64,000 nucleotides of DNA from Vicinamibacteria bacterium (GTDB lineage Bacteria > Acidobacteriota > Vicinamibacteria > Fen-336 > JAGNNV01): positions 71,700 to 135,699 of the forward strand of contig JBGATM010000009.1 of assembly GCA_044229175.1 (NCBI GenBank), given 5' to 3'. Under the pieces are notes generated by a model. The model ran no database searches. It had not been told where the DNA came from and saw nothing but the letters and a program-made list of their open reading frames with translations. Both the position numbers and the translations under genes were made by a program. Below are positions 3,703 through 61,200 of the stretch, piece by piece; the stretch's first letter is position 1, and every line of letters begins with the position of its first letter.

Positions 3703-3745
3703 CAGGCGATGTTATTCCCCGGCCAGCGCACAATTTTCTTGCCGA

Positions 3746-3761
3746 CATGACAGCGGTCATG
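3746..3761. promoter_or_regulatory. Palindrome CATGAC-agcg-GTCATG in the divergent intergenic region upstream of the nos/bc operon. Candidate CRP/FNR-family (DNR/NnrR-like) binding site.
   Basis: Perfect 6-bp inverted repeat with a 4-bp spacer (core TGAC-N4-GTCA, one mismatch per half-site from the FNR consensus TGAT-N4-ATCA). Lies about 135 bp upstream of ATG 3894. Confidence 0.3.
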
Positions 3762-3893
3762 AGCGGAGCCCGAATGGCTCGTCACAATCCGTCTCGAAAT
3801 GATGCAAATGGCTCTTTCCGAGGGTCTTGAGGCGCTGCCAAGCTGGGCGGGTCGTCGATACCCGATGACCATCGGGCGGAGGAGTGTCTTTCC

Positions 3894-5846
3894 ATGACGA
3901 CTCTCAAGGTTCGCCTGCCGGATCTCGAACACTGGAAGGGCCAGGTCAAGTGCCAGTCCGGTTGCCCGGTCGGCACGGATGCCGGTCGTTACGTGCAGCT
4001 CATCGCCGAGGGCCGCGACCAGGAGGCGTATCTCACCGCGCGCGCGCCGAATCCTTTCGCGTCGGTCTGCGGGCGGGTCTGCGCCGCGCCCTGCGAAGAC
4101 GCGTGCCGGCGTGGGACCATCGACGCCCCCATCGCCATCCGTTCTCTGAAGCGCTACGTCACCGAGCGCTATGGCGCCGAGTCGATCCGTCCCGACACCC
4201 AGGACCTCCTGCGCGACACCCTTATCGGGGAAGGCAACCGATTCCCTGGCCATCTGCCCACCGCACCGGTGAGTGCGCTGCCCAATGCCGCCAAAGGCCG
4301 GAAGGTCGCAGTGATCGGCGCCGGCCCCGCGGGCCTCGCCGCCGCGCACGACCTCGCCCTCCTCGGCTACGACGTGACCGTGCTCGAGGCTTCGGAAGAG
4401 CCGGGCGGCATGATGCGGTTCGGCATTCCCGAGTACCGGTTGCCTCGAACCCTGATCCGTCAGGAGATCGACAAGATCCTGTCTCTCGGCGTCACCCTGC
4501 GCACCAAGGCGCCTCTGACCCCGACCTTCGGCCTCAAGGAACTCCGGGCCCAGGGCTTCGAAGCCTTCTTCATCTCGGTCGGTGTGTCCCGCGGTCGCGA
4601 ACTGTCCGCTCCCGGCGTCGAGCTCGATGGCGTCGTGAAGGCGGTCGACTACCTCCTCAACGTCAATCGCGGGTATCGCCTTCCCCTCGGACGAAAGGTG
4701 GTGGTGATCGGCGGCGGATTCGTCGCCTTCGACGCCGCCCGCACCGCGCTTCGTCTGGGTCGCGAGACCGCGGAGCAGGAACTCGACACCCTGGTTTCCG
4801 AGTCCGAGGCGCGTGCGAAGGAAGCGATCGACTCGGCCCGCGCCGCGATCCGCGGAGGCGCCTCCGAAGTGACCATCGTCTCCCTCGAGCGATTCGAGGA
4901 GATGCCGGTTCTCCGCACCACCCAGGGGCACGAGGAGTTCGAGGAGACCAAGCACGAGGGTGTGGCCTTCCTTCCCGGCCGCGGCCCCAAGCGATTCCTC
5001 GGCGAGTCCAGGCTGCAGGCGATCGAACTTCGCGCCGTCCGCTCGGTCTTCGATGCGAATGGCCGTTTCGCGCCGGTCTACGACGACGACGACGTCCTCA
5101 CCATCGAAGCCGATTCCTGCATCCTCGCCATCGGCCAGCAGACGGACCTGAGCTTCCTCAAGCCCGAGGACGGGGTCGAGGTCCTGCGCAGCGGCTCGGT
5201 GAAGATCGATGCCACCACCCTCGCCACCACCGCTCCCGGGGTCTACGCGGGCGGCGACGTGGCGTTCGGTCCGCGAAATCTCATCGAGGCGGTCGCGAAC
5301 GGCAAGCGCGCGGCGCGGTCCATCCACGAACACTTCTCACACGAGGGCGCGCGCATCGAGCGCACTCTCGCCATCGAGGTCCTGCCCACCGCCCAGTACC
5401 GGATGAGCGCGGGTTTCGAAATCCTCGACCGCAAGGCCGCTCCGACACTCGATGTCGGTCGCCGGACCGGAATCGCCGAAGTCGAGACCGGCTACGACGC
5501 GAAGGAAGCGCGCACCCAGGCGTCGCGATGCCTGGTTTGCCACGTGCAGACCATCTACGACCCGGAGAAGTGCATTCTCTGCTCGCGCTGCGTCGACGTG
5601 TGTCCCGAGTTCTGCCTCGCCATCGTACCGGTCGAGAGCCTGGACCTTCCCGAGGCGGCGCGCGACGAACTCATGGAACGCGCCCAGGCGAACGGCCTGC
5701 CTCTGGCGGCCATGGTGAAGGACGACGACCGCTGCATCCGCTGCGGCCTGTGCGCCATCCGCTGTCCCACCGACGCCATGACCATGGAGAAATTTCAGAT
5801 CACCGAGCGATACGCGCCCGCTCAAGTGGAAGAGAAGAGGAGCTGA
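3894..5846 (+). CDS. GltD-family (glutamate synthase small-subunit-like) FAD/NAD(P)-binding iron-sulfur oxidoreductase with a C-terminal 2x[4Fe-4S] ferredoxin domain.
   Basis: The N-terminal Cys cluster VCGRVCAAPCEDAC matches the GltD [4Fe-4S] region. The Rossmann motif VAVIGAGPAGLAAAHDL is present. A second motif is VVVIGGGFVAFD. The C-terminal VYAGGDVAFGPRNLIEAVANGKRAA matches the GltD FAD site. C-terminal CILCSRCVDVCP and CIRCGLCAIRCP are ferredoxin motifs. There is a 2-bp gap to the Rieske gene. Confidence 0.8.
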   Translation: MTTLKVRLPDLEHWKGQVKCQSGCPVGTDAGRYVQLIAEGRDQEAYLTARAPNPFASVCGRVCAAPCEDACRRGTIDAPIAIRSLKRYVTERYGAESIRPDTQDLLRDTLIGEGNRFPGHLPTAPVSALPNAAKGRKVAVIGAGPAGLAAAHDLALLGYDVTVLEASEEPGGMMRFGIPEYRLPRTLIRQEIDKILSLGVTLRTKAPLTPTFGLKELRAQGFEAFFISVGVSRGRELSAPGVELDGVVKAVDYLLNVNRGYRLPLGRKVVVIGGGFVAFDAARTALRLGRETAEQELDTLVSESEARAKEAIDSARAAIRGGASEVTIVSLERFEEMPVLRTTQGHEEFEETKHEGVAFLPGRGPKRFLGESRLQAIELRAVRSVFDANGRFAPVYDDDDVLTIEADSCILAIGQQTDLSFLKPEDGVEVLRSGSVKIDATTLATTAPGVYAGGDVAFGPRNLIEAVANGKRAARSIHEHFSHEGARIERTLAIEVLPTAQYRMSAGFEILDRKAAPTLDVGRRTGIAEVETGYDAKEARTQASRCLVCHVQTIYDPEKCILCSRCVDVCPEFCLAIVPVESLDLPEAARDELMERAQANGLPLAAMVKDDDRCIRCGLCAIRCPTDAMTMEKFQITERYAPAQVEEKRS

Positions 5847-5848
5847 GG

Positions 5849-6355
5849 ATGGCCGAACCCAACAATCGCCGCGACTTCATGATGAAAGCCGGACTCGGCG
5901 CCGGGGTTTGCGGCCTCGGCCTGCAGGCGGCGGCTTCCCTGAGGTCGCTGGTCCCCAACGTGTCGTACGACGCCCCCACCACGGTCAAGATCGGGATGCC
6001 CACCGATTTTCCGGACGGCCTCAAGTTCCTGCCCGACCAGCGTCTGTTCGTCTTCCGCGAAGGCAAGACCTTCCACGCCATCTCCGCGGTGTGCACGCAT
6101 CTCGGTTGCACGGTGCGCGCCGAGGCCATGTCCCAGCCCGAGACGAAGGAAGTCGATGGCGTGAAGATGCGGCTCACTCATCGCTTCCTCTGCCCTTGTC
6201 ATGGCTCCCGCTATGAAGGCGACGGCAAGGCGGTGGCCGGCCCCGCGCCCCGCGCGCTGGCCTGGTACCACCTTTCCATCTCCGTCGATGACGGCTCGCT
6301 CGTGGTCGATCTCGCCCAGGAAGTGGCGCGCGACTTCCGACTCACTCTCGCCTGA
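5849..6355 (+). CDS. Rieske [2Fe-2S] iron-sulfur protein with Tat-type signal.
   Basis: Twin-arginine motif NRRDFMMKAGLG. Rieske boxes CTHLGC and CPCHGS. Confidence 0.85.
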   Translation: MAEPNNRRDFMMKAGLGAGVCGLGLQAAASLRSLVPNVSYDAPTTVKIGMPTDFPDGLKFLPDQRLFVFREGKTFHAISAVCTHLGCTVRAEAMSQPETKEVDGVKMRLTHRFLCPCHGSRYEGDGKAVAGPAPRALAWYHLSISVDDGSLVVDLAQEVARDFRLTLA

Positions 6356-6366
6356 GGACAAGACCG

Positions 6367-7722
6367 ATGGCCTTTCCCTTCCTCTCCTTCCTCAAGCGGT
6401 CCGGGGCACCGGAGGCTCCGGGCGTTCACCCGCAGCCTTTCTGGAGCTTCCGGCCGCGCTCCGACCGTGAGTCGGGCGATGCCATCGTCTCCAACTTCGC
6501 CCTGCACATGTTCCCGGCCAAGGTCTCCCGCGCGTCTCTCGCGTGGAAGTACTCGTTCTGGCTGGGCACCGGGTCGGCCGCCCTCTTTCTCCTCCTGATT
6601 CTTTCGGGCGGGCCGCTCCTGTTCCTGTATGTGCCCTCGGTCGAGCGCGCCTACGCGTCCATCAAGGACATCGAATACGTGGTGACCTTCGGTTCGTGGC
6701 TGCGCTCCGTCCACCGCGTGGGCGCCCATCTGATGGTGGTCGTGGTGGCGCTCCATCTCGTCCGGGTGTTCCTCACCGGTGCTTACAAGAACGGCGTGGG
6801 GCAGGGACAGAAGCGCGAGTGGAACTGGGTGATCGGCGTGTTCATGCTGCTCTTCACCCTCCTCCTGTCCTTCACGGGTTACCTGCTGCCCTGGGATCAG
6901 CTCGCGTTCTGGGCGGTCACCGTGGGTACCAACATCGCGGCGTCCATTCCGTTCATCGGACCGCAGGTGCGCGAGCTCCTGATCGGCGGCCGCGCGATCG
7001 ACCAGCCCACCCTGATCCGGTTCTACGTGCTGCATATCGTGGTTCTCCCCATCGCGGTGGGCGCGTTGTTCGCCTACCACATGTGGAGAGTGCGCAAGGA
7101 CGGCGGTCTCGCCGCGGTGGACAAGGAAGCCAGAGAGAACGAACTTCAGGAAGCCCCGGCGAGTTCCACCAAGACCTACACCCTCCTCGGCATCGCCCGC
7201 GGCACGTCTCCGGTCATCAAGGCGACCTCCATCAGCCGGCTGGACAAGATGGTGAATGCGGTTCCCGATCTCGTGCGCCGGGCCAATCTGGTGACCCTCG
7301 CGACCATCGCCATCATCTCGATCCTCGCCACCTTCGTGCGCTCGCCCCTCGAGGAGCCCGCGAATCCGCTGGTGACGCCCAATCCGGCCAAGGCCCCGTG
7401 GTACTTCCTTTGGCTGCAGGAGATCGTCACCGACACCACGATCAAGATCGGCTCGTTCACGGTCAACGGCGCGTTCGTGGGCGGCGTGGTCCTGCCCGGC
7501 GCCCTGGTCACGCTGCTGATCCTGTGGCCGTGGCTCGATCGCAGTCCCAAGGAGGCGGCCGGCGTCTGGTTCGCCCGCGCCCGCCGCAGGCAGAACCTCG
7601 TCTTCATCCTGCTCTGCGCCTTTGTCCTGGCTCTGACCTTCGTGGGCACGGTGATGCGCGGTCCGTACTGGCACATCTACTGGCCCTGGGAAGCCTGGCC
7701 CGACATTCCGGGACGGCTCTAG
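6367..7722 (+). CDS. Cytochrome b (bc-complex quinol oxidase subunit).
   Basis: Multi-TM protein with conserved His-containing helices (SVHRVGAHLMVV, FYVLHIVVLPI) and the PWDQ-like motif LPWDQLAFWA typical of cytochrome b/b6. Confidence 0.85.
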   Translation: MAFPFLSFLKRSGAPEAPGVHPQPFWSFRPRSDRESGDAIVSNFALHMFPAKVSRASLAWKYSFWLGTGSAALFLLLILSGGPLLFLYVPSVERAYASIKDIEYVVTFGSWLRSVHRVGAHLMVVVVALHLVRVFLTGAYKNGVGQGQKREWNWVIGVFMLLFTLLLSFTGYLLPWDQLAFWAVTVGTNIAASIPFIGPQVRELLIGGRAIDQPTLIRFYVLHIVVLPIAVGALFAYHMWRVRKDGGLAAVDKEARENELQEAPASSTKTYTLLGIARGTSPVIKATSISRLDKMVNAVPDLVRRANLVTLATIAIISILATFVRSPLEEPANPLVTPNPAKAPWYFLWLQEIVTDTTIKIGSFTVNGAFVGGVVLPGALVTLLILWPWLDRSPKEAAGVWFARARRRQNLVFILLCAFVLALTFVGTVMRGPYWHIYWPWEAWPDIPGRL

Positions 7723-7731
7723 GAGGAAGCC

Positions 7732-8979
7732 ATGGAGAAGCGAACCAATTCCCCCTATCCCCGGATCGACCAGCCCGTGCTGGCCGTGGTCGGCGTCCTG
7801 CTCGTCATCTCCACCGTTCTCTTCGCGCGTAACGACCGCGAGCACGAGTGGCGCTGGTACCAGGCCGAGTTCAAGCGCCTGGTCTCCGAGAAATTCGGGC
7901 CGGACAAGGCCAAGACGGTCCCCACCGGGCTTCAGCAGATCTGGATTCCCAGCATGGCGAAAGCGGATCGCTGCGTGACCTGCCACCAGGCCCTCGGCTG
8001 GAAGGGTTTCGAGACCGCGGACGAGCCCTTCCGCACGCATCCCGCGGAGATCCTCAAGAGCCATCCCCCCGAGACCTTCGGCTGCACCTCCTGCCATGGC
8101 GGCCAGGGCTGGGCCATCGACGCGGGCCCCGCGCACGGGCCCATCGAGCACTGGAACGAGCCGCTCCTCGGCAAGCAGCTCGGCTCGGAGTACTCCCTGG
8201 TGGATAACAAGGCCGCGCTCATGCAGATGAACTGCAACGTGTGCCACCGCTACGAGCGCGAGACCAAGGGCGCCGACGCCATCAATCACGCGAAGAAGCT
8301 GGTCCAGGAGAAGGGCTGCCGCGGCTGTCACGTGGTCAACGGGCGCGGCGGCACCATCGGGCCGGATCTCACGTACGTCGGCGACAAGGAAGCCGAGCAG
8401 TACGAGTACGGGCGCCTGTCCGGCCAGAAGACATCCTTCGCCTGGCACGTGGCGCACTTCAAGGACCCGCGGTCCCTGGTCACCGAGACGGTCATGCCCA
8501 ACTTCAACTTCGGCACCAAGGACGCCCAGGCCCTGGCCATGCTGGTCCTGTCGTGGAAGAAGTCGCCGGTTCCCGCCGCCTTCATCCCCGGGGTACCGCA
8601 TTCCGAGCCGCAGACCGAGCAGGAGAAGGCCGACGAGGAGCGCATGAAGACGGGCCCGGGCGGGTGGTTCGTCAAGACCGGCTGCTTCGTATGCCACTCC
8701 ATCTCCGCACTGGGAGTGAAGAGCCCGGCTCAGATCGGGCCCGATCTCTCGACCGCGGTCGAAGACGTGCAGTCGCGGTTCGGACGGACGCTCGACGACT
8801 TCCTTCGCGAACCCACGGGCACCATGTCCGTGGTCCTTTCCCGCCAGATCATCCTCACGCCGGAGGAGAAGGCGGTGGCGATCTCGAAACTCCGCGAAGC
8901 CTACGCGGAGCACGAGAAGCAGAAGGCAACCGCGGCGAAAGCGGACAAACAGGCGGCTCCAGTGGCGGCCCGCCACTAA
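7732..8979 (+). CDS. Membrane-anchored pentaheme c-type cytochrome.
   Basis: N-terminal TM anchor. Five CxxCH motifs: CVTCH, CTSCH, CNVCH, CRGCH, CFVCH. Confidence 0.8.
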   Translation: MEKRTNSPYPRIDQPVLAVVGVLLVISTVLFARNDREHEWRWYQAEFKRLVSEKFGPDKAKTVPTGLQQIWIPSMAKADRCVTCHQALGWKGFETADEPFRTHPAEILKSHPPETFGCTSCHGGQGWAIDAGPAHGPIEHWNEPLLGKQLGSEYSLVDNKAALMQMNCNVCHRYERETKGADAINHAKKLVQEKGCRGCHVVNGRGGTIGPDLTYVGDKEAEQYEYGRLSGQKTSFAWHVAHFKDPRSLVTETVMPNFNFGTKDAQALAMLVLSWKKSPVPAAFIPGVPHSEPQTEQEKADEERMKTGPGGWFVKTGCFVCHSISALGVKSPAQIGPDLSTAVEDVQSRFGRTLDDFLREPTGTMSVVLSRQIILTPEEKAVAISKLREAYAEHEKQKATAAKADKQAAPVAARH

Positions 8980-9003
8980 ATCAAAAAGGTGAGGAAAAGA
9001 AAC

Positions 9004-10863
9004 ATGCGTACGATCAGAGCAACGGAGATGTCCCGATACGGCATCCTCGCCCTGGCGATTTTCGCCGTGGCGTGCGCCCCCAGCGCTCCCAAGGGAGCTC
9101 AGAAATCCGGAGGAGGCGCCACGTCGGACGTGGCCATCGCGGCCCAGAAGACCTACGTGGCCCCCGGCGATCTCGACGAGTACTACCTCTTCTCGTCGGG
9201 CGGTCATTCCGGCCAGGTGTACGTCTATGGCGTGCCATCGATGAGGCACATCACCACCATCCCCGTCTTCACCCCCTACCCGGGGACCGGCTACGGTTTC
9301 GACGACGATTCGAAGAAGATGCTTGGACCCGACCTCACCTGGGGCGATCTCCATCACCCCAAGCTCTCCGAGACCAACGGCGACTACGACGGCCGCTGGC
9401 TCTTCGTGAACGAGATGAACGGTCGGGTGGCCCGCATCGATCTGCGCGATTTCAAGACCAAGCAGATCCTCGGGCCCATCCCGAACGTGTCCGGCAACCA
9501 CGCGTCGGCGTTCGTGACCCCCAACAGCGAGTACTCGGTCATGGCCTCGCGCTTCTCCATTCCCATTCCCAAGGGAACGGTGGCCGGCGTCGACAAGTAC
9601 GCGTCCGACTACAAGGGCGTGATCACCGGGATCAAGATCGATCCGAAATCGGGCGAACTGAGCTTCGGCTGGCAGATCGTCATGCCGCCCTTCGACTACG
9701 ACCTCGGCGATGCCGGCAAGAAGGCGTCCGACGGGTACGTGTTCTTCACCTCCTACAACACCGAGAAGGCCACGGGCAAGCTCGAGGTGACCGCGTCCCA
9801 GAAGGACCGCGACTACATCGCCATGGTCGACTGGAGACTCGCGGAGAAGTCGGCAGCCGAAGGCAAGGGCAAGATGATCGGTGGGGTCAAGGTTCTCGAT
9901 CCCAAGGAAATCCCCGGACTCGTGTACTTCCTCCCCTGCGGCAAGTCGCCCCACGGCGTCGACGTGGCCCCCGAGGGCAAGTGGATCGTGGGCTCCGGCA
10001 AGCTCCAGGGCGTCACCACCGTGTTCAACATCGAGAAGATCCAGACCGCGATCAAGAACAAGAACTTCACCGGCGACGAGGACGGCATCCCCGTGCTCAA
10101 GTACGAGGACATCAAGGATGCGGAAGTGCCAGTCGGCCTCGGCCCCCTGCACACCCAGTTCGGGCCCGACAACTGGGCGTACACCTCTCTGTTCGTGGAC
10201 AGCGCCATCGCGAAGTGGAAGCTCGGCACCTGGGAAGTGGTGGACAAGGTTCCCATGTCCTACTCCATCGGCCACCTCTCCGCCGCGGAGGGAGACACCG
10301 TCAGTCCCGACGGCAAGTACCTGGTCGGCCTCAACAAGCTCTCTCACGGGCGTCATCTCTCCGTCGGTCCGAGCCAGCCCGAATCGTCGCAGCTCGTGGA
10401 CATCAGCGAAGAGAAGATGAAGCTCATCTACGACGCCTTCACCGAGCCCGAGCCCCACTACGCCCAGATGATCAAGGCGGACAAGCTGCATCCGATCGAG
10501 GTCTACACCAAGGAGGAGAACAAGCATCCCCTGGCCATCTGGGACGTGAAGGACGCGGGCGTCACCAGAAACGGCAACAAGGTCCTGGTGAAGATGGTGG
10601 CGGTTCGCTCGACCCTCACTCCGACCGACTTCGAAGTGAAGGCGGGCGACGAGGTGACCATCGCCATCACCAACATCGAGCAGACCACCGACGAACTGCA
10701 TGGGTTCGGACTGCTCGACTACAACATCAACATCGTCGTGGATCCGGGCGAGACCAAGACGGTGACGTTCAAGGCCAAGAAGGCTGGTGTGTTCCCGTTC
10801 TATTGCACCAACTTCTGCTCGGCTCTGCATCAGGAGATGCAGGGCTACTTCATCGTGCGCTGA
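9004..10863 (+). CDS. nosZ: Nitrous oxide reductase NosZ with Sec-type signal peptide (clade II-like).
   Basis: CuA motif CTNFCSALHQEMQGY at the C-terminus. His-rich beta-propeller region. N-terminal MRTIRATEMSRYGILALAIFAVACA is a Sec (not Tat) signal. RBS GGTGAGG lies 9 nt upstream of ATG 9004 (the ORF track starts at GTG 8989). Confidence 0.9.
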   Translation: MRTIRATEMSRYGILALAIFAVACAPSAPKGAQKSGGGATSDVAIAAQKTYVAPGDLDEYYLFSSGGHSGQVYVYGVPSMRHITTIPVFTPYPGTGYGFDDDSKKMLGPDLTWGDLHHPKLSETNGDYDGRWLFVNEMNGRVARIDLRDFKTKQILGPIPNVSGNHASAFVTPNSEYSVMASRFSIPIPKGTVAGVDKYASDYKGVITGIKIDPKSGELSFGWQIVMPPFDYDLGDAGKKASDGYVFFTSYNTEKATGKLEVTASQKDRDYIAMVDWRLAEKSAAEGKGKMIGGVKVLDPKEIPGLVYFLPCGKSPHGVDVAPEGKWIVGSGKLQGVTTVFNIEKIQTAIKNKNFTGDEDGIPVLKYEDIKDAEVPVGLGPLHTQFGPDNWAYTSLFVDSAIAKWKLGTWEVVDKVPMSYSIGHLSAAEGDTVSPDGKYLVGLNKLSHGRHLSVGPSQPESSQLVDISEEKMKLIYDAFTEPEPHYAQMIKADKLHPIEVYTKEENKHPLAIWDVKDAGVTRNGNKVLVKMVAVRSTLTPTDFEVKAGDEVTIAITNIEQTTDELHGFGLLDYNINIVVDPGETKTVTFKAKKAGVFPFYCTNFCSALHQEMQGYFIVR

Positions 10864-10906
10864 GGCTCGTCCTAGCGGGCGGTCGGCGTTTCGCAGTCGT
10901 GGGGTC

Positions 10907-10957
10907 GTGGTCCTCCTCCCTCAGGACCACGGCCCCTCCTTTTGAAAGGGGTGCCGC
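10907..10957 (+). terminator. Two consecutive hairpins after nosZ (GTGGTCCT-N8-AGGACCAC, then CCCC-tccttttgaaa-GGGG). The second overlaps the putative nosB RBS.
   Basis: Inverted repeats read directly from the sequence. Lie in the 94-bp nosZ-nosB spacer. Confidence 0.3.
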
Positions 10958-11590
10958 ATGCGTGACTTCCTGAAACGGGCGAATGCCTTCCTGGACGCCC
11001 CCCTCGATCTTGGCCCCCGGGTGATGGTGCTCTGCGCGGCTCTGGCCCTCATCCCCACCTTCACCTCGCCCCTCTACACCATGACCATGTTCGCGCCCCA
11101 GTATCCCGACGGCCTGCGGCTGTTCATCTACAGCTACAAACTCGTGGGCGGGAACGGCGGTCAGGATGTCAAGGAGATCAACGTCCTGAACCACTACATC
11201 GGAATGCGTGATCTTGCCACCGAGGATTTCGGCGAATTCAAGTGGATGCCCTTCGTCATCGGCGCGTTTTCCCTTCTGTTCCTGCGCACCGTGGTGATGG
11301 GCAGGCTGACCCATCTGGTGGATTCTGTGGTCTTGTTCGTCTACTTCGGCGCCTTCGCCCTGTGGTCCTTCGGTTACAAGATGTGGAGCTATGGTCACAA
11401 CCTCGCCCCCACCGCCGCGGTGAAGGTGGCTCCCTTCATGCCGCCCATGTACGGGTACAAGCAGCTCGCGAACTTCGAGGTCTACTCGTATCCAGCGCTA
11501 GGGTCGTACGCCCTGGGCGCTTCGGCCCTCCTCTTGATCCTGGGCTTCGTGTGGGCGGCCCGAAGCGCCCGCCGGCCGTTTTCAGCCTGA
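10958..11590 (+). CDS. nosB: NosB-like polytopic membrane protein (the accessory gene that follows nosZ in clade II clusters).
   Basis: 210-aa protein with about 5 hydrophobic helices, immediately downstream of a Sec-type nosZ. The assignment rests on position and topology only. Confidence 0.5.
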   Translation: MRDFLKRANAFLDAPLDLGPRVMVLCAALALIPTFTSPLYTMTMFAPQYPDGLRLFIYSYKLVGGNGGQDVKEINVLNHYIGMRDLATEDFGEFKWMPFVIGAFSLLFLRTVVMGRLTHLVDSVVLFVYFGAFALWSFGYKMWSYGHNLAPTAAVKVAPFMPPMYGYKQLANFEVYSYPALGSYALGASALLLILGFVWAARSARRPFSA

Positions 11591-11597
11591 GCGCGAC

Positions 11598-12989
11598 ATG
11601 TTGACCGGGGCGATGGCGGTGATGCTGCTTCTGGGTTCGGGCGCGGCCCCGCAGCCGCCCGGCGACGACGGGGCGGTGACGCCGGGACAGGTGGAGGGCC
11701 GGCCGGCTCCGGGTGACCAGTCCCCCCTCCAGTCCCGCGTGGATGAGGCGGCCCCGGGCGCGATCATCGTGGTCCACGCCGGCACCTATCGAGGCGATCT
11801 GTTCCTCGATCGCCCCCTGACCCTCCGCGCCCAAGGCGAGGTGACCCTTGTCGGTTCGGGCCACGGCAGCGTGGTGCGCGTGCGCGCGGCCGATGTGACC
11901 ATCGAGGGCTTCAGCATCGACGGCATGCGCGGCGGCGACCTGGGTCGGGACTCGTCGGGCATTCATGTGACCGGTCGCGATGCGACGGTGAGGCGATGCC
12001 GTATCCGGAACTCACTCTTCGGGATCTACCTGCGCGAGTCCAGTGGAACGGTGGTGGAGGACACGGAGATCCTCGGCATTCCCGGCCTCGATCCGGGGGA
12101 GAAGGGCTCGGGAATTCACCTCTGGAACTCGCACGGGTTCCGGCTGGAGCGCAACGTGATCCGCGACGTGCGCGACGGGTTCTATGTGCAGTCCTCGACC
12201 GGCGGCGTGATTCGGGGGAACCGGGTCACCGATATCCGCTACGGCCTCCACTACATGTTTTCGGACGACAATCTGTTCGAGGACAACGTCTTCGAGAACG
12301 GGGCGGCCGGCGCGGCCCTCATGTACTCGAAACGGATCGTTTTCCGGCGGAACCAGTTCATCCGCAACCGCGGCTTCGCTTCGGTGGGTCTGCTCCTCAA
12401 GGTCTGTGACAACGTCCTGGCCGAGGACAATCTGCTCGCGGACAACGCGCGGGGCCTGTTCGTGGAGGGGTCGGAAAAGAACACATTCCGGCGGAATGTC
12501 ATCGCGGGATCGGACGTGGCCGTGGTCCTCTACGATTCGGTGTCGGGGCAGCGTTTCGAGTCCAACTCCTTCGTCTCCAACCGCTCGCCCCTGCTCCTCG
12601 TGGGCACGCGCACCGACACGATCTTCACCGGGAACTACTACACCGGAAACCTCGAGCCGGACCTCGACGGCGATGGAGCCAGCGATCGCCCCTTCACCCT
12701 CGGCAGCGTCTTCGATCACTTCCGGGGGAACGTGATCGCCGCGGATTTGCTGGTCGACACCCCGGCGGCCGAGGCCCTGGGCCTGGCGGAGCGGACGTTC
12801 CCGGTGCTCCGGAAGATCGCGGTTGCCGATGACCGCCCTCTGGCCAAGGCGCCGGAACTCCCGGCCGTGCCCGTGGCCGCGCGCGTGCGGGGCGCCGCCA
12901 GTCTCCTCGGCCTGCTGGTCTCGGCCGGGTTGATGCTTCTCGGTCTCGCGGGATTTCACCTCGGGCAGCGCGCGGGAGGGGCGGCATGA
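11598..12989 (+). CDS. nosD: NosD, periplasmic copper-processing protein with right-handed parallel beta-helix repeats.
   Basis: Repeated G(N/D)xI...N beta-helix motifs. Start codon overlaps the nosF start region (ATGA). Confidence 0.8.
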   Translation: MLTGAMAVMLLLGSGAAPQPPGDDGAVTPGQVEGRPAPGDQSPLQSRVDEAAPGAIIVVHAGTYRGDLFLDRPLTLRAQGEVTLVGSGHGSVVRVRAADVTIEGFSIDGMRGGDLGRDSSGIHVTGRDATVRRCRIRNSLFGIYLRESSGTVVEDTEILGIPGLDPGEKGSGIHLWNSHGFRLERNVIRDVRDGFYVQSSTGGVIRGNRVTDIRYGLHYMFSDDNLFEDNVFENGAAGAALMYSKRIVFRRNQFIRNRGFASVGLLLKVCDNVLAEDNLLADNARGLFVEGSEKNTFRRNVIAGSDVAVVLYDSVSGQRFESNSFVSNRSPLLLVGTRTDTIFTGNYYTGNLEPDLDGDGASDRPFTLGSVFDHFRGNVIAADLLVDTPAAEALGLAERTFPVLRKIAVADDRPLAKAPELPAVPVAARVRGAASLLGLLVSAGLMLLGLAGFHLGQRAGGAA

Positions 12990-13894
12990 TCTCGTTCCGC
13001 GGTTTCGTCAAGACCTACGGAAAGCACGAGGCGGTCAAGGGTCTCGACCTGAACGTGGGCCGGGGTGAGGTGGTGGCCCTCCTCGGACCCAACGGCTCCG
13101 GCAAGACCACGTCGCTCAAGGCCGCGGCCGGCCTGGTCAAGCCCACGGCCGGCGTGGTTCTGGTGGGGAACCCCGGCCGCCCCGCGAGCGAGCCCGAGGC
13201 GCGGCGCTGCCTTTCCTTCCTTCCTCAGCGCGTCGCTTTCCAGGATTCCCTCTCCGGCCAGGAGGTCTTGAACTTTCACCGCCAGATTCGCGGCGTCGAC
13301 GCGGCCCATGCCACCGCGGCCCTCGGTGTCGCTTCCCTCAATGGCGCGGTGGTCCGGGCGGTGTCCACGTACTCGGGCGGAATGCTCCAGCGTCTGGGCC
13401 TCGCGGTGGCGTTGCTTCCGGACGCCCCCGTATTCCTTCTGGACGAGCCCACCGCCGCGCTCGACCCCGACGGCCTGGAGGCGTTCTACAAGGTCATCGC
13501 GAAGTCGCGGGCGGACGGCCGCGCGGTCCTCTTCACTTCTCATCAGATGGGCGACGCCGAGCGGCTGGCCGACCGGTTCGCCATCCTGGTCGACGGCGTC
13601 CTTGTCGCCGACATCGGCGGACGCGAGATGAAGGACCGTCTGGCCGAACGGGGACACATGAGGCTTCGCGTACCCTCGCTCGACCCGTCAACCCTGGCCG
13701 GTCTGCGCGTCATGGCGCCCGAGGCGGTGTTCACGGATGGCGAACTCGTGGTTCCCGGACCCGCGGGCATGCGTCCCCGCGTCATCGAGCTGATCCTGGC
13801 TCGGGGACATCAGATCGTCGACCTGGTGGCCGAGGATGGCCGTCTCGACGATCTCTACCGCGAGATGGTCGGCCCTCGGGGAGAAGCCCGGTGA
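12986..13894 (+). CDS. nosF: NosF, ABC transporter ATP-binding protein.
   Basis: Walker A GPNGSGKTT. ABC signature YSGGMLQRL. Walker B FLLDEP. Confidence 0.8.
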   Translation: MISFRGFVKTYGKHEAVKGLDLNVGRGEVVALLGPNGSGKTTSLKAAAGLVKPTAGVVLVGNPGRPASEPEARRCLSFLPQRVAFQDSLSGQEVLNFHRQIRGVDAAHATAALGVASLNGAVVRAVSTYSGGMLQRLGLAVALLPDAPVFLLDEPTAALDPDGLEAFYKVIAKSRADGRAVLFTSHQMGDAERLADRFAILVDGVLVADIGGREMKDRLAERGHMRLRVPSLDPSTLAGLRVMAPEAVFTDGELVVPGPAGMRPRVIELILARGHQIVDLVAEDGRLDDLYREMVGPRGEAR

Positions 13895-14340
13895 AGCGCC
13901 TCGTGCTTCTGCTTTCCCTGGCGCTCGTCTCGTGCGATGGGGAACCGCGCCCCGAGGACCTGGTCAAAGGCCGGGACCTGTGCGCCACCTGTCGCATGCC
14001 CGTATCGGACATCCGCTTTGCCGCGCAGATCACCGCGCCCGGGGAACTGCCGCGATTCTTCGACGACCCTGGCTGCTTCGCCGAGTTCGTCCGGAGCGGG
14101 GAAGTGAAGGAGAAAGGGGCGGTCGCCTGGGTGGCGGACCATCGCACCGGGACCTGGGTGCGCGCCGATCGCGCGGTCTATACCCGCGTGGAGAACCTGG
14201 CCACACCGATGAACCACAAGCTGGTGGCGCATGAAAGCCCCGCCTCGCGGGATTCCGATCCTGCGGCCAGGGATGGGAAGCCTCTGTCCCTCCTGGAAGT
14301 CTTCGGCCCCAAGGGGCCTCCCACGGGTGCTTCATCATGA
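13891..14340 (+). CDS. nosL: NosL, copper chaperone lipoprotein.
   Basis: Lipobox LALVSC. CxxC-M motif CATCRM. Size about 150 aa. GTGA overlap with nosF. Confidence 0.7.
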   Translation: MKRLVLLLSLALVSCDGEPRPEDLVKGRDLCATCRMPVSDIRFAAQITAPGELPRFFDDPGCFAEFVRSGEVKEKGAVAWVADHRTGTWVRADRAVYTRVENLATPMNHKLVAHESPASRDSDPAARDGKPLSLLEVFGPKGPPTGASS

Positions 14341-15164
14341 ATCTTCGTTTGTTCGCGGCCGAGGAACTGAAGATCGCCCTCCGCTCGCGGTGGACCCAGA
14401 TCTTCGCCGTGGTGTTCGCGATCCTCGCCGGGGGAGTCGCCGCCGCGGGGTATGTGATTTCCGGCGGCCACGGCGTCCAGGATTTCGCGCGCACGTCCGC
14501 ATCGCTGGTTCACCTCGTGGTGCTGATCGTGCCCCTGGTGAGCCTGATGCTGGGCGTGCTTTCGCTGTCCCTGGAGCGGGGCGCCGCCGAGGTGGTCTTC
14601 GCTCTCCCCGTCTCCAGGCGGACCATCCTGCTCGGCCGGCTGCTCGGACTCTTCACCGCCCTCGCCCTGGCCCAGTCGTTCGGTTTTGGCCTTGCCGGGC
14701 TCCTCGTCTACACCCAGTCCGGTCCCGAGGGCATCGGCGATTTCGTCATCGTGCTGGCCGCTTCCTTCGTGGCCACGGCCGTGTTCCTTGCCCTCGCGGC
14801 GCTCCTCTCCGCGGACGCCTTCGGTCGAAGGCGCACGAAGGCCCTCGCGCTCGCGCTCGTCGCGTGGCTCGTGGGCGAAGTGTTCATCGATCTCGCCGCC
14901 CTCGGCCTTGCGACCTTCCTTCCCTCCGGCGCCGCTTCGCGCGTCCTCATCCTGGCGAGCCTCGTGAATCCCATCGGCGCCCTGCGCACGGGGGCGCTGC
15001 TTCTGGTGGAGGGCACGGGCGCTTTCGGCGCGGCCTCCCTCGCGCTGCTTCGCTTCACGCACGGGCCCGCGGGAGCGGGCGCGTTGATTGCGCTCTCGCT
15101 CATCGGCTGGATTCTCGTGCCCGCCTTCTGGGCGGGCCGTCGCCTCGAACGCGCCGACATCTAG
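14337..15164 (+). CDS. nosY: NosY, ABC-2 type permease.
   Basis: Six predicted TM helices. ATGA overlap with nosL. Sits in the nos context. Confidence 0.7.
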   Translation: MNLRLFAAEELKIALRSRWTQIFAVVFAILAGGVAAAGYVISGGHGVQDFARTSASLVHLVVLIVPLVSLMLGVLSLSLERGAAEVVFALPVSRRTILLGRLLGLFTALALAQSFGFGLAGLLVYTQSGPEGIGDFVIVLAASFVATAVFLALAALLSADAFGRRRTKALALALVAWLVGEVFIDLAALGLATFLPSGAASRVLILASLVNPIGALRTGALLLVEGTGAFGAASLALLRFTHGPAGAGALIALSLIGWILVPAFWAGRRLERADI

Positions 15165-15185
15165 CCCGGAACGAGCGCGCCGGCC

Positions 15186-15208
15186 CCCGCGCCGCGACTG
15201 GGCGCGGG
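15186..15208. terminator. GC-rich hairpin (8-bp stem CCCGCGCC/GGCGCGGG) between the convergent nosY and marR genes.
   Basis: Perfect 8-bp inverted repeat with a 7-nt loop, read directly from the sequence. No U-tract follows. Confidence 0.3.
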
Positions 15209-15241: not shown

Positions 15242-15718
15242 CTATCGAGCGGGGTCCGGCCCCATGGTCGGGTCCCTGAGGCTGAGCGCCACCACCCCCA
15301 GGGCTTTGATCGCGCTCTCGACTTCCTCCCGGGTCAGGGCGTGAAGGGCCTTGTGAACCCCTGACTCGATGGTCGGTTCAGGCCGCCCCAGCAAAGCGAG
15401 TCCGGCCGGGGTGATCTGGAGCAGCGAACGCCGCCGATCGGGTCCATCGGAACGGCGAGAGAGCAACCCGCGGCTCACCAGCCGCTTCATCACCCCCGAG
15501 ACCGTGCTCGGATGCAGATGGAGAAGCCGGGCGAGACGGCCCGCGGGAAGGCCGGGGAATCGACTGACGAGCCGAAGAGCGAGCCGCTGGGGTCCGGTAA
15601 CCCCGAGGTCCTTCGCCATCCGCTTCGAGCGCTTCTGCAAAGCGTGATCGAGCGCCCACAGCTCCCGGAGGAAGGCCAGGTCCGGGCCGAGGTCGATCGG
15701 CGGATCGAGCGGTTTCAT
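15242..15718 (-). CDS. MarR-family transcriptional regulator.
   Basis: Winged-HTH region LVSRFPGLPAGRLARLLHLHPSTVSGVMKRLVSRGLLSR. ATGA overlap with the otsB stop. Confidence 0.75.
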   Translation of the reverse strand: MKPLDPPIDLGPDLAFLRELWALDHALQKRSKRMAKDLGVTGPQRLALRLVSRFPGLPAGRLARLLHLHPSTVSGVMKRLVSRGLLSRRSDGPDRRRSLLQITPAGLALLGRPEPTIESGVHKALHALTREEVESAIKALGVVALSLRDPTMGPDPAR

Positions 15719-18755: not shown

Positions 18756-18776
18756 CGTAAAAGGATATTCTATTTT

Positions 18777-18808
18777 CAGTTGGTACTCCAACCGTTTGCC
18801 GCTATCCT
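18777..18808 (+). promoter_or_regulatory. Copy 1 of a conserved motif: palindrome CAGTTGG-tact-CCAACcG followed by TTTGCCGCTATCCT. Putative operator plus promoter.
   Basis: 33/38 identical to the copy at 19671-19706. Lies between the divergent otsA and cytochrome-lipoprotein genes, about 75 bp upstream of ATG 18883. TTGGTA-N17-TATCCT resembles a -35/-10 pair. Confidence 0.5.
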
Positions 18809-18882
18809 CCGCCGACCGGCCCCTCGGGACCTGCGCGGCCCAGCGCACGGAAGAGCTTTCGCAAAGGGCCTAGCATGTTGGG

Positions 18883-19641: not shown

Positions 19642-19672
19642 CCGAACGGTCTGAACGCCGGCCCGGCACATT

Positions 19673-19704
19673 CAGTTGGTGCTCCAACTGTTTACCGCTA
19701 TCCT
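19673..19704 (+). promoter_or_regulatory. Copy 2 of the motif: perfect 7-bp inverted repeat CAGTTGG-tgct-CCAACTG followed by TTTACCGCTATCCT, immediately upstream of the GH15 gene ATG (19715).
   Basis: Direct repeat of copy 1. The spacing implies a leaderless or near-leaderless transcript. Confidence 0.5.
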
Positions 19705-19714
19705 TCCCTGGACC

Positions 19715-61111: not shown

Positions 61112-61200
61112 TTCAGACTGACAACCATACCATGACAAGGGCGGGCGACTATGATTGGAACCAGGCCGGCAATGACCCTGGCCCAGGTGGAGATGAAGAA

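Follow-up and report, generated by a model that had tools for sequence, protein, structure and literature searches.

Why does a clade II nos operon, which encodes the reduction of the greenhouse gas N2O, begin with a gene for an NAD(P)-binding flavoprotein? The question is raised by positions 3894–15164 (+ strand) of a 64,000-nucleotide stretch of Vicinamibacteria DNA, referred to here as the window. The host is a soil acidobacterium.

Organization of the nos locus

The locus consists of ten intact co-directional genes, in the order flavo-FeS protein, Rieske protein, cytochrome b6/SUIV, pentaheme cytochrome c, NosZ, NosB-like protein, NosD, NosF, NosL, and NosY. The ten-gene cluster had been proposed by a preceding sequence-only reading, and all ten open reading frames were re-found at the coordinates given there. 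Their products were assigned to domains and families by Pfam and NCBIfam profile searches, which detected neither NosR nor NosX in 3894–15164. The first three intergenic gaps, from the flavoprotein gene to the pentaheme gene, are 2, 11, and 9 nt long, and after nosB a single 7-nt gap is followed by three 4-nt overlaps. The uniform spacing claimed earlier, 2–11 bp gaps or 4-bp overlaps, applies to most junctions but not to the nosZ-nosB spacer of 94 nt, nor to the junction preceding nosZ, which measures 24 nt from the ATG at 9004 and 9 nt from an alternative GTG start at 8989.

The palindrome TGACAGCGGTCA (3748–3759, unstranded), of the type recognized by the FNR/CRP family, lies between two divergent genes, 146 bp ahead of the flavoprotein start. 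The gene on its other side is on the − strand, with a reading frame open from 3711 to position 1. This candidate box is the sole match to TGAYN4RTCA within 3000–15200. In 80 related loci, the 300 bp that precede the orthologous flavoprotein gene contain 76 such sites in total, compared with an overall rate of ~0.04 per 300 bp, and the motif is nearly absent within the operon. A relative with 94% identity carries a gene for a Crp/Fnr-family regulator ~3.3 kb upstream. A promoter under FNR/CRP control, upstream of the flavoprotein gene, may drive the whole unit.

NosZ (9004–10863, +) is of the Sec-dependent clade II type, as claimed beforehand: it scores 895 bits with TIGR04246 (cut-off 625). 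Its score with the Tat-type model is 448 bits, under the cut-off of 625, and its N-terminus has no twin-arginine motif. The signal peptide ends with the lipobox-like sequence FAVAC; such a motif is present in 11 of 62 orthologs, including that of Anaeromyxobacter PSR-1. A terminator scan identified a GC-rich 14-bp stem-loop with a T-run in the nosZ-nosB spacer (10901–10936, +), which could be a terminator/attenuator or an mRNA-stabilizing hairpin. The corresponding spacers of 46 related loci have medians of 76 nt for length, −40 kcal/mol for MFE, and −2.4 for z.

The NosB-like integral membrane protein (10958–11590, +; 210 residues) has four predicted transmembrane helices and no family match in Pfam or NCBIfam. 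Its gene directly follows nosZ in 48 of 48 loci, and its position and topology agree with the description of nosB in the literature (PMC11096178). The periplasmic β-helix maturation protein NosD (11598–12989, +) matches TIGR04247 with 370 bits (cut-off 300) and Pfam NosD. It is followed by the ABC ATPase NosF (12986–13894, +; Pfam ABC_tran), the copper chaperone lipoprotein NosL (13891–14340, +), and the ABC-2 permease NosY (14337–15164, +; Pfam ABC2_membrane_2), which occupy the same positions in 44/44, 41/42, and 38/38 loci, respectively. NosL gives a weak match to PF05573 (22.6 bits, cut-off 24) and has an LALVSC lipobox at its N-terminus. NosB, D, F, L, and Y would act in the maturation of NosZ.

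Rieske protein, cytochrome b, and pentaheme cytochrome c

The Rieske [2Fe-2S] protein (5849–6355, +; Pfam, NCBIfam) is composed of a Tat signal/anchor with the motif RRDFM and a cluster domain with the boxes CTHLGC and CPCHGS. It carries the high-potential Ser/Tyr signature CPCHGSRY, and the S..Y pair, which has been tied to redox potential (PMC12954380, PMC3509893), is kept in 73 of 74 orthologs. The best match among solved Rieske structures is Kuste4569 (9rk4, E 6e-17), followed by the b6f Rieske protein 8hn2 (E 1.4e-15) and by Kustd1480 (9rk3, E 4e-15). The two Kuenenia stuttgartiensis complexes Kuste4569–4574 and Kustd1480–1485 contain an NAD(P) oxidoreductase subunit, and their Rieske proteins have measured potentials of +303 and +335 mV (Hauser 2025, PMC12954380).

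Cytochrome b (6367–7722, +) is a single 451-residue polypeptide with seven transmembrane helices, in which a b6-like half is fused to a SUIV-like half (Pfam Cytochrome_B and Cytochrom_B_C). Its nearest solved relatives are cytochromes b6. The protein keeps all four heme-b histidines and the Qo motif KAPWYF, common to the anammox proteins, and lacks the heme c_n cysteine (FWLGT versus anammox FTWCMGG). His47, in the sequence LHMFP, aligns with the histidine of anammox LHLHP that has been proposed to ligate an extra heme b. This set of features is kept in 70 of 73 orthologs.

The pentaheme cytochrome c (7732–8979, +) contains five CxxCH motifs and is anchored in the membrane by one transmembrane helix (residues 14–32). 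The N-terminal helix and a diheme module precede the further heme sites: a Pfam class-I Cytochrom_C domain at residues 187–271 holds the fourth heme (C196), and the fifth CxxCH is at 318. A FixO-like Pfam match is also present. The pentaheme protein is the presumed electron donor to NosZ.

Structure of the flavoprotein

The first gene (3894–5846, +) encodes a 650-residue flavoprotein with the GltD/NfnB fold and binding domains for FAD and NAD(P) (Pfam Fer4_20 and Pyr_redox_2), which ends in a 2×[4Fe-4S] ferredoxin domain with two CxxCxxCxxxCP motifs. The Fer4_20 domain is split, as the N-terminal match covers profile positions 30–108 and residues ~525–552 correspond to positions 3–30. The split domain and the ferredoxin tail together hold about four predicted FeS sites. 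Cysteines C20, C24, C63, C67, C71, C546, C549, C560/563/566/570, and C614/617/620/624 are invariant. The protein has no transmembrane helix or signal peptide and is predicted to be soluble and cytoplasmic.

The AF2 model of the flavoprotein (pLDDT 85, pTM 0.85) has its best fold matches in bifurcating NfnABC (9bov), StnABC, and NfnB, and resembles the NAD(P)H/FAD subunits of these Nfn/Stn enzymes. Foldseek comparisons with 9bov, 9n5u, 8oh5, 5jca, 4ylf, 6s6s, and 1h7w reach an E-value of 8e-43 at 26–32% identity. All GltD/GOGAT models of NCBIfam score below cut-off, for example TIGR01317 with 181 bits versus 448. The Kuste4570-type anammox subunit aligns with the full length of the flavoprotein (residues 8–633) at 34% identity and 315 bits. 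In the NAD(P) domain, the VYRRT of the Kuste4570 type is replaced by VTIVSLE and a helical insertion. This difference suggests a preference for NAD(H) over NADPH and, possibly, a different physiological role.

Conservation of the flavoprotein-Rieske/cytochrome b unit

The flavoprotein occurs at 71–97% identity in at least 80 species-level genomes besides the window, from Vicinamibacteria, Thermoanaerobaculia, Holophagales, Anaeromyxobacter sp. PSR-1, Myxococcaceae, and Binatia. Among 80 genomes, counting loci whose contig extends far enough, the order is conserved for the Rieske (73/73), cytochrome b (66/67), pentaheme c (61/61), and NosZ (50/50) genes. Flavoprotein identity tracks that of the partners across loci (r 0.87–0.93), with the same mean of ~75%. 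The adjacency of the flavoprotein with Rieske/cytochrome b and nos genes is far above chance.

The linkage to the Rieske and NosZ genes is the outcome of the synteny survey that the sequence-only reading had proposed, and the synteny, the correlation of ~0.9, and the sole FNR-like box upstream bear out its claim that the flavo-FeS gene forms one conserved unit with Rieske/cytochrome b. Its view of the flavoprotein as unexpected did not hold: this is the standard layout in nos clusters of the Acidobacteriota/Anaeromyxobacter type, and the protein is a widespread dedicated Rieske/cytochrome b partner in several phyla. Published nos-cluster diagrams already mark genes for an 'Fe-S protein' by color in clusters of clade II, with the organisms unstated in the legend (PMC11096178).

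A flavoprotein relative with 54% identity, encoded on an island flanked by integrase/transposase genes, has the same gene order. Genes for a Rieske protein, a cytochrome b, or both adjoin eight of the nine sampled 50%-cluster representatives (38–54% identity). The terminal module beside the sampled distant relatives varies (Nos, NarGHJI, none, or complex I without NuoEFG), and in several lineages the unit has a high-potential N-oxide reductase (Nos, Nar, HAO-like) as its neighbor. It is present in culturable Anaeromyxobacter.

Proposed function and alternatives

We propose that the flavoprotein is most likely the cytoplasmic subunit of a dedicated menaquinol:NosZ complex. Judged from sequence, it is probably a subunit of a nos-dedicated Rieske/cytochrome b complex, with a predicted position on the n-side. 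The four-subunit composition is derived from sequence and synteny, and the physical assembly from homology. The complex would oxidize menaquinol and deliver electrons to periplasmic NosZ, first via the Rieske cluster and then via the pentaheme cytochrome. The pool quinone is presumed to be menaquinone, as is general in these taxa. Since the Rieske center would be of the high-potential Ser/Tyr type and the pool would be menaquinone, the second electron at Qo is expected to be very reducing. It would not be returned solely to quinone, and may travel from bL to bH, possibly by way of a His47-ligated inter-monomer heme, and through four FeS clusters and FAD to NAD(P)+. This would constitute electron bifurcation from quinol, as proposed for the anammox complexes, and the exergonic branch would here be the reduction of N2O.

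We assign a probability of roughly 45% to the operon being a self-contained N2O respiratory module that couples quinol-based bifurcation to NAD(P)+ reduction. Net electron flow toward NAD(P)+, drawn by analogy, is tentative, at somewhat less than even odds. For the anammox complexes, too, the mechanism has the status of a proposal; Anaeromyxobacter, Acidobacteriota, and similar heterotrophs obtain NADH catabolically, and reverse flow is not obviously needed; and by our own estimate the energy margin, to the Rieske center only, is small with the membrane potential included. The four subunits are homologs of those in the unusual anammox complexes proposed to produce NAD(P)H from quinol.

The same complex could operate in the opposite direction, which we consider rather unlikely. 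FAD would take up electrons from NAD(P)H, and the FeS clusters would hand them on to heme bH and an n-side quinone site, or to the low-potential chain. The result would be a compact NAD(P)H:cytochrome c/N2O oxidoreductase bypassing complex I, its flow perhaps reversible with the redox state of the pools. The acidic VSLE, which is not the NADPH-type YRR of the autotrophic anammox proteins, suits catabolic NADH, which is plentiful in heterotrophic hosts, and for GltD-type subunits, the fold relatives, NAD(P)H is the usual electron source. The absent heme c_n cysteine, and therefore an n-side site unlike the anammox type, also favors NAD(P)H input, as does one relative that adjoins a complex I operon without the NADH-oxidizing NuoEFG module. 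However, an uncoupled NADH-to-menaquinone step loses ~250 mV relative to complex I, a waste argument made by Hauser et al. for the anammox complexes (PMC12954380), and both the high-potential Ser/Tyr Rieske protein in presumed menaquinone organisms and the recurrence beside very high-potential acceptors would be left unexplained.

It is improbable that the flavoprotein is co-transcribed without being a complex subunit, as a soluble NAD(P)H-dependent FeS reductase aiding NosZ indirectly, either by supplying low-potential electrons for upkeep of NosZ or its maturation, in place of clade I NosR/NosX, or by redox balancing. Clade II clusters, like 3894–15164, are without NosR and NosX; one relative with 48% identity has a FixG-like polyferredoxin membrane protein nearby and no Rieske/cytochrome b neighbor; and complex membership in this lineage is homology-based. 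Nevertheless, what stays constant from phylum to phylum is the Rieske/cytochrome b partner and not Nos, also beside Nar, HAO-like, or no reductase, the subunits of the Kuenenia complex co-migrate, flavoprotein homolog included (PMC12954380), and a cytoplasmic protein without a membrane partner could not reach periplasmic NosZ.

An ordinary metabolic enzyme merely neighboring nos, a glutamate synthase small subunit or a formate dehydrogenase β subunit as the GltD fold and the database names 'NADPH-dependent glutamate synthase beta subunit-like oxidoreductase' and 'formate dehydrogenase beta subunit' would have it, is hardly credible: it is contradicted by GltD/GOGAT scores far under cut-off and invariable Rieske synteny, neither in the window nor in any surveyed locus does the flavoprotein gene adjoin gltB or a gene for a formate dehydrogenase catalytic subunit, and the permuted FeS domain and extra ferredoxin domain are common to the anammox subunit.

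Comparison with known systems

Earlier accounts of anammox Rieske/cytochrome b complexes were reportedly given in Kartal 2013 and de Almeida 2016. The resemblance to them, noted as an analogy in the sequence-only reading, is true homology of all four subunits. The flavoproteins share the split Fer4_20 domain, the 2×[4Fe-4S] tail, and the cysteine pattern; both Rieske proteins are of the Ser/Tyr type; the cytochrome b6 halves are 46% identical and have KAPWYF and the N-terminal histidine in common. Pentaheme residues 12–201 are homologous to the multiheme subunit encoded after SUIV (E 6e-9), including the transmembrane anchor and diheme module, and in both systems the genes adjoin an N-oxide-converting enzyme. 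That enzyme is an HAO-like octaheme protein in anammox bacteria, whereas it is NosZ here. In the window, b6 and SUIV are fused, SUIV has three transmembrane helices instead of five, the cytochrome, which contains class-I c domain(s), carries five hemes instead of six or eight, VSLE replaces YRRT in an NAD domain that also has a helical insertion, and the flavoprotein gene comes first. The hosts, heterotrophs of the Acidobacteriota and Myxococcota, have no anammoxosome. Because the heme c_n cysteine of the anammox proteins and two SUIV helices are missing, the modeled anammox electron path is partly unconserved here.

The experimentally described clade II nos system of Wolinella succinogenes (Hein, Witt and Simon 2017) likewise has a Sec-type NosZ, nosB directly downstream, and nosDFYL, is without nosR/nosX, and relies on c-type cytochromes as well as a Rieske/cytochrome b complex. 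It differs in having NosGH/C1/C2, whose genes nosG, nosH, nosC1, and nosC2 are absent here, and in the separately encoded Rieske/cytochrome bc complex, which here lies inside the operon with the NAD(P)-binding flavoprotein. The window NosZ has no C-terminal cytochrome c domain, unlike that of Wolinella, and a separate pentaheme protein is encoded instead.

NfnB/NfnABC/StnABC and GltD/DPD have the same FAD and NAD(P) Rossmann and two-cluster FeS fold as the flavoprotein. Their partners NfnA, Bfu, and GltB are absent here, however, and the genomic partner is the membrane Rieske/cytochrome b. In the FeS domain, the initial ~30 positions, RCxxC included, have moved behind the flavin domains, a 2×[4Fe-4S] ferredoxin domain is added at the C-terminus, and the family models fall below cut-off.

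Cytochrome b6f, the 'green clade' menaquinol:cytochrome c reductases, and Geobacter ExtP/ExtQ share with the window cytochrome b the b6-type four-helix heme-b core, the four histidine ligands, and the SUIV-like C-terminus; ExtP (233 bits) and ExtQ (73 bits) are its best NCBIfam models, both below cut-off. In contrast to these relatives, the window protein is a fused polypeptide without the heme c_n cysteine, a pentaheme protein takes the place of cytochrome f or a diheme cytochrome c, and a gene for an n-side flavoprotein is present.

Gene content of the nos operon

The nos operon of the Vicinamibacteria bacterium occupies positions 3894-15164 of the window, which has a G+C content of about 67%. 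ORF checking together with Pfam and NCBIfam searches agrees with the sequence-only reading that the block consists of ten co-directional ORFs on the + strand, all of them intact. The tight spacing described for the whole block holds with one exception, a gap of 94 nt between nosZ and nosB. Upstream of 3894, a minus-strand ORF of a secreted protein stays open from 3711 to the window edge. Since this neighbor is on the opposite strand, the flavoprotein gene is the first of the co-directional block, which is ended by a minus-strand MarR gene (15242-15763).

The flavoprotein (650 aa; 3894-5846) is composed of a Fer4_20 domain of the DPD/GltD FeS type, a Pyr_redox_2 FAD/NAD(P) Rossmann region, and a C-terminal pair of CxxCxxCxxxCP motifs. 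The Rieske protein (5849-6355) is of the Tat type and contains CTHLGC and CPCHGS boxes. Cytochrome b (451 aa; 6367-7722) unites b6-like and SUIV-like halves in one protein, and the pentaheme cytochrome c, called c5 (415 aa; 7732-8979), has five CxxCH motifs and one N-terminal TM helix. NosZ (9004-10863) belongs to the Sec-dependent type, scoring 895 bits in the NCBIfam model TIGR04246 (cut-off 625) versus 448 bits in the Tat-type model TIGR04244, which is under the cut-off of 625; no twin-arginine motif was found in the NosZ N-terminus. The gene directly 3' of nosZ (10958-11590) encodes a 210-aa membrane protein with four hydrophobic helices, which is present in 48/48 loci. It occupies the position of NosB and has no match in the family libraries searched, which include no NosB model. 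NosD scores above its family cut-off; NosF, NosL, and NosY were assigned by domain and conserved position, the NosL match being weak. Pfam and NCBIfam detected no FMN_bind/NosR-like or ApbE-like product within 3894-15164. With nosD, nosF, nosY, and nosL present and nosR and nosX absent, the locus agrees with clade II, as does its Sec-dependent NosZ.

In the NosZ N-terminus (9004-9090), the signal peptide ends in the lipobox-like motif FAVAC. Such a motif is found in 11 of 62 NosZ orthologs, that of Anaeromyxobacter PSR-1 (LAVGC) among them, and NosZ may be lipid-anchored in part of the lineage.

The secreted protein divergent from the nos operon (1-3711, minus strand) is more than 1,230 aa long and runs off the window edge; for the ORF 73-3141 that overlaps it, the scan covered the + strand product and returned no Pfam match. 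Trehalose genes (15715-21481) are located just 3' of the nos operon, preceded by the divergent MarR regulator (15242-15763); the minus strand encodes an OtsB-like phosphatase and a GT20 OtsA, and the plus strand has a GH15 trehalase-like gene. A small ORF at 18883-19641 has weak matches to multiheme cytochromes, and an FTR1 iron permease fused to a cytochrome c domain is encoded on the minus strand at 59183-61138. The region 34841-38036 encodes COX1 (heme-copper oxidase subunit I, 680 aa) and a COX3-like protein, and COX2 directly follows nosY in the 94%-identical relative L169; genes of aerobic and N2O respiration are therefore neighbors.

Co-inheritance of the flavoprotein gene with the nos operon

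The flavoprotein was scanned against one genome per GTDB species, which returned 80 loci with identities of 71-97%. Their hosts are Vicinamibacteria, Thermoanaerobaculia, Holophagales, unclassified Acidobacteriota, Anaeromyxobacteraceae, Myxococcaceae, and Candidatus Binatia, and include the cultured isolate Anaeromyxobacter sp. PSR-1. The nearest relatives are Vicinamibacteria (Acidobacteriota) MAGs, one of which (locus L001) reaches 97% identity. The linkage of the flavoprotein, Rieske/cytochrome b, and nos genes, previously read from the window alone, recurs in the synteny survey with the same genes in the same order in every locus on a long enough contig. With denominators counting the contigs that reach far enough for each gene, Rieske is present in 73/73, cytochrome b in 66/67, the pentaheme cytochrome in 61/61, NosZ in 50/50, NosB-like in 48/48, NosD in 47/47, NosF in 44/44, NosL in 41/42, and NosY in 38/38.

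The identity of the flavoprotein to that of the window co-varies with the identities of Rieske, cytochrome b, c5, and NosZ (r = 0.90, 0.93, 0.92, and 0.87, respectively), and its mean of 75% equals the mean of its partners. The N-terminal six-Cys pattern is kept in 80/80 sequences and both ferredoxin motifs in 78/80. Because gene order is kept, identities co-vary, means are equal, and cofactor motifs are retained, we conclude that the flavoprotein is co-inherited with its partners and is under the same constraint. Chance adjacency or an assembly artifact is ruled out by the synteny (73/73 to 38/38 across 80 genomes) and the co-varying identities. A pseudogene or a decaying gene is ruled out by the intact ORF, the invariant cofactor motifs, and the partner-level conservation.

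Putative upstream regulatory site and nosZ-nosB spacer

The palindrome TGACAGCGGTCA, with the geometry of FNR/CRP-family sites (5-N4-5), is positioned at 3748-3759, 146 bp 5' of the flavoprotein start, and is the only match to TGAYN4RTCA within 3000-15200. The 80 loci contain 76 such sites within 300 bp 5' of the flavoprotein gene, versus a background of ~0.04 per 300 bp, and essentially no FNR/CRP-type sites within the operon or before nosZ. This in-silico evidence suggests an anoxia- or N-oxide-regulated transcript that begins with the flavoprotein gene and extends through at least nosZ, and it points against a separate and unregulated flavoprotein gene, the outcome that the sequence-only reading had named as refuting its model. 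For another organism, Crp/Fnr control of clade II nosZ has reportedly been suggested. In a 94%-identical relative, genes of a cNMP-binding/HTH_Crp regulator and of a ScdA/hemerythrin protein are located a few kb upstream. A sigma-70 promoter scan gave no matches and is uninformative for a high-GC genome.

Within the nosZ-nosB spacer, at 10901-10936, a strong GC-rich hairpin of 14 bp precedes a T-run. A structured spacer is kept in 46 related loci (medians: length 76 nt, MFE -40 kcal/mol, z -2.4), and may serve as an attenuator, or as an mRNA stabilizer giving an excess of nosZ mRNA.

Identity and fold of the flavoprotein

The flavoprotein, in which no TM helix or signal peptide is predicted, is not a GltD/NfnB proper: every GltD/GOGAT/Nfn NCBIfam model scores far under its cut-off, with 181 for TIGR01317 (cut-off 448), 178 for TIGR01318 (483), and 255 for TIGR01316 (472). 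Neither the window flanks nor the related loci contain a gltB, nfnA, or formate dehydrogenase catalytic gene. The AF2 model of the flavoprotein is of high confidence, with a pLDDT of 85 and a pTM of 0.85; poor definition is limited to a helical insertion of the NAD domain (residues 303-321), the loop 123-130, and the five C-terminal residues. In structure it most closely resembles NAD(P)H/FAD subunits, namely those of the electron-bifurcating NfnABC (9bov, 9n5u), StnABC (8oh5), NfnI (5jca), and NfnB (4ylf). DPD and GltD rank next, and the sequence search agrees.

The N-terminal Fer4_20 match of the flavoprotein spans profile positions 30-108 only, and residues ~525-552 (…EARTQASRCLVCH…) match positions 3-30. 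This complementary Pfam match, the sole basis for a permutation, suggests that the first part of the FeS domain (RCxxC) has been relocated behind the flavin domains, before the 2x[4Fe-4S] ferredoxin domain. The FeS domain thus appears to be split or permuted, with RCLVC after the flavin domains and the rest at residues 18-93. The split arrangement is common to the anammox subunits. An alignment of 40 sequences, reaching down to 36% identity, shows no variation at C546 and C549, and the cysteine count of the flavoprotein corresponds to about four FeS clusters.

A family of Rieske/cytochrome b partners

An exhaustive representative search found many full-length relatives of the flavoprotein with identities of 36-54%, and eight of the nine representatives looked up adjoin Rieske and/or cytochrome b genes. 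P0121 (54%; L081 1-9994, JGI Ga0556608_0001790) is part of a complete flavoprotein-Rieske-cytochrome b-cytochrome c-nos cluster on a mobile island. The context of P0125 (51%) includes a 706-aa multiheme cytochrome c, and P0271 from Planctomycetota (50%; L083 10001-21899, JADZCA010000010) is followed by Rieske, cytochrome b, two cytochromes c, and NarGHJI, in that order. In P0141 from a marine metagenome contig (46%; L167 3440-13452), flavoprotein, b6, SUIV, Rieske, and diheme cytochrome c genes are directly followed by nuoABCDHIJK without nuoEFG. In P0277 from Dehalococcoidia (41%), ccm genes precede those of the flavoprotein, b6, SUIV, Rieske, and cytochrome c, and a reductase is absent. The remaining relatives are accompanied by Rieske and b6 (P0144, 45%), Rieske (P0193, 39%), or cytochrome b (P0222, 38%); only P0136 (48%) has no Rieske/cytochrome b neighbor. 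The constant unit is therefore flavoprotein, Rieske, and cytochrome b, and the terminal module varies. This constant partnership is the strongest argument, drawn from gene neighborhoods, that the flavoprotein is probably a subunit of the complex and not a Nos accessory factor.

A MerR regulator precedes the L081 cluster, and the genes next to this cluster encode an integrase, a transposase, phage Rep_O/DnaB, and type I restriction proteins. This setting suggests that the whole module, including the flavoprotein gene, moves as a unit and was horizontally transferred. Upstream of the L083 cluster are genes for a sigma-54 two-component system and a ScdA/hemerythrin protein. The layout of L167 raises the question of whether the flavoprotein is functionally related to complex I variants without the NADH module.

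Proposed mechanism

Across the genomes compared, the module has a set composition, is co-inherited, and has a common putative regulatory site upstream. The predicted topology places the flavoprotein in the cytoplasm, and the Rieske domain, cytochrome c, and NosZ in the periplasm. We infer that these organisms use the complex as their menaquinol:NosZ oxidoreductase.

Acidobacteriota and Anaeromyxobacter generally have a menaquinone pool. Box II of the Rieske protein reads CPCHGSRY, and its S..Y is retained in 73 of 74 orthologs. A Ser/Tyr pair lifts Rieske potentials to ~+300 mV, and menaquinol-oxidizing complexes normally have Rieske proteins of low-potential A/G-Y/F types (PMC12954380, PMC3509893). 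Combined with a menaquinone pool, a high-potential Rieske protein, as predicted from this signature, would make the second electron very reducing, an argument that has likewise been made for the anammox complexes.

By analogy with the latter, our preferred reading, to which we assign a probability of roughly 0.4-0.45, is that the second quinol electron reduces NAD(P)+ through the b hemes, the FeS clusters, and FAD. It would pass from bL to bH, perhaps to a heme at His47, and on to the four FeS clusters, FAD, and NAD(P)+. The first electron would travel from the Rieske centre to the pentaheme cytochrome and then to NosZ and N2O. The NADH formed could re-enter via complex I, conserving part of the N2O/N2 redox span. 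We put forward only tentatively, and with some doubt, that the nos-dedicated complex performs quinol-based bifurcation, in which one electron goes to NosZ/N2O and the second one uphill to cytoplasmic NAD+. By our own estimate, the energy available up to the Rieske centre barely covers NAD+ reduction and transmembrane electron transfer; on this count bifurcation is feasible, though with little margin.

The same wire could also operate in reverse, with NAD(P)H as the electron donor. In favor of this direction are the NADH-like VSLE motif of the flavoprotein, the heterotrophy of the hosts, and the lack of heme c_n, but we consider it less likely than the preferred one. That the flavoprotein is a soluble enzyme unattached to the complex is, given its constant partnership with Rieske and cytochrome b, quite improbable. 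That the protein is an ordinary GltD or FDH-beta deserves hardly any credence, as canonical GltD or formate dehydrogenase beta (the database-source name) is ruled out by the sub-cut-off scores and the absence of partner genes.

Significance for N2O respiration

The genes of the module have been public for years, those of cultured Anaeromyxobacter included. 'Fe-S protein' genes are colored in published figures of clade II nos clusters (figure legend, PMC11096178). In the searchable open literature, we found no identification of the flavoprotein gene as that of an NAD(P)-binding subunit, although closed-access reviews may contain one. These reviews aside, the same literature yielded no paper linking clade II nos clusters to anammox-type complexes, no mention of the family-wide Rieske/cytochrome b partnership of the flavoprotein, no relevant paper joining Rieske, clade II NosZ, bifurcation, and NADH, and none that treats Kuenenia, Rieske, Anaeromyxobacter, and nitrous oxide jointly. 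New here are a lineage of at least 80 species whose nos operon begins with an NAD(P)-binding flavoprotein, the placement of this flavoprotein in a widespread family of dedicated Rieske/cytochrome b partners, and the true homology of the complex to that of anammox bacteria.

To our knowledge, NosZ is the sole biological sink of N2O, and the electron route to clade II NosZ is known mainly from Campylobacterota. Soils are rich in clade II organisms, Acidobacteriota and Anaeromyxobacter among them, and the view of the electron route to NosZ in these N2O reducers is revised by the present results. The labels 'glutamate synthase' and 'formate dehydrogenase beta' in models of N2O energetics and in MAG pipelines need revision. 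Anaeromyxobacter grows on N2O, and we know of neither a pure culture nor genetic manipulation of anammox bacteria. Since Anaeromyxobacter is culturable, the decade-old hypothesis of NAD(P)H formation by quinol bifurcation becomes directly testable. If the nos-dedicated complex does bifurcate, it would provide the first culturable system outside anammox bacteria in which the long-proposed NAD(P)H-generating Rieske/cytochrome b mechanism could be demonstrated. Higher growth yields have been reported for some clade II N2O reducers, and bifurcation, if it takes place, might contribute to them.

Comparison with anammox complexes

Two Rieske/cytochrome b complexes of Kuenenia stuttgartiensis (Kuste4569-4574 and Kustd1480-1485) were described by Hauser et al. 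2025 (PMC12954380). Both have, on the cytoplasmic side, a putative NAD(P) oxidoreductase with FAD and four FeS clusters, together with a b6-like cytochrome b, a five-helix SUIV, and multiheme cytochromes c. The subunits co-migrate, the Rieske potentials are +303 and +335 mV, and both complexes have been proposed to reduce NAD(P)+ with electrons from quinol (PMC12954380).

The resemblance to anammox complexes noticed in the window extends to homology in each subunit type tested, namely the flavoprotein, Rieske, cytochrome b, and multiheme cytochrome c. In the PDB ranking of the window Rieske protein, 9rk4 (Kuste4569, 6e-17) is first, the b6f Rieske 8hn2 (1.4e-15) second, and 9rk3 (Kustd1480, 4e-15) third. 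Anammox-type loci were fetched from metagenomes with the aligned Kuste4569 fragment; the sequences compared are those of close relatives, with Rieske proteins 80-85% identical to the 9rk4 fragment, and not Kuenenia's own. Their gene order is Rieske, flavoprotein (595 aa), b6, SUIV, multiheme cytochrome c, and an HAO-like octaheme protein. The window and anammox-type flavoproteins are 34% identical over residues 8-633 (315 bits, E 1e-103), an alignment that tops any PDB match. The window locus thus encodes, beside Rieske/cytochrome b, a flavo-FeS protein that is homologous to Kuste4570/Kustd1483. Both flavoproteins have an N-terminal C-x3-CP…C-x3-C-x3-C-x3-C pattern and a C-terminal RCLxC followed by two ferredoxin motifs.

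The anammox b6 is ~46% identical to the b6 half of the window cytochrome b, and the two have the KAPWYF Qo motif and the N-terminal …N..LH..P in common. His47 of the window cytochrome b (NFALHMFP) pairs in the alignment with the first His of the anammox SNVWLHLHP and is kept in 70 of 73 orthologs. We take it to be the counterpart of Kuste4571 His43, which holds only if the protein of the relative starts two residues into the ORF. His43 has been proposed to bind an additional heme b between the monomers (PMC12954380). The anammox multiheme subunit is homologous to the TM anchor and the first two heme sites of c5 (E 6e-9).

The complexes differ in that b6 and SUIV are separate in the anammox loci, whereas they are fused in the window into a protein of 451 aa with seven TM helices. 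The anammox SUIV has five TM helices, but that of the window ends after three. The heme c_n cysteine of the anammox protein (FTWCMGG) is absent from that of the window, where the sequence is FWLGT. The flavoprotein of the Kuste4570 type has VYRRT, in contrast to VTIVSLE and the NAD-domain insertion in that of the window; some anammox-linked relatives (L117, L133) also have an NAD-domain insertion, together with a CLES motif.
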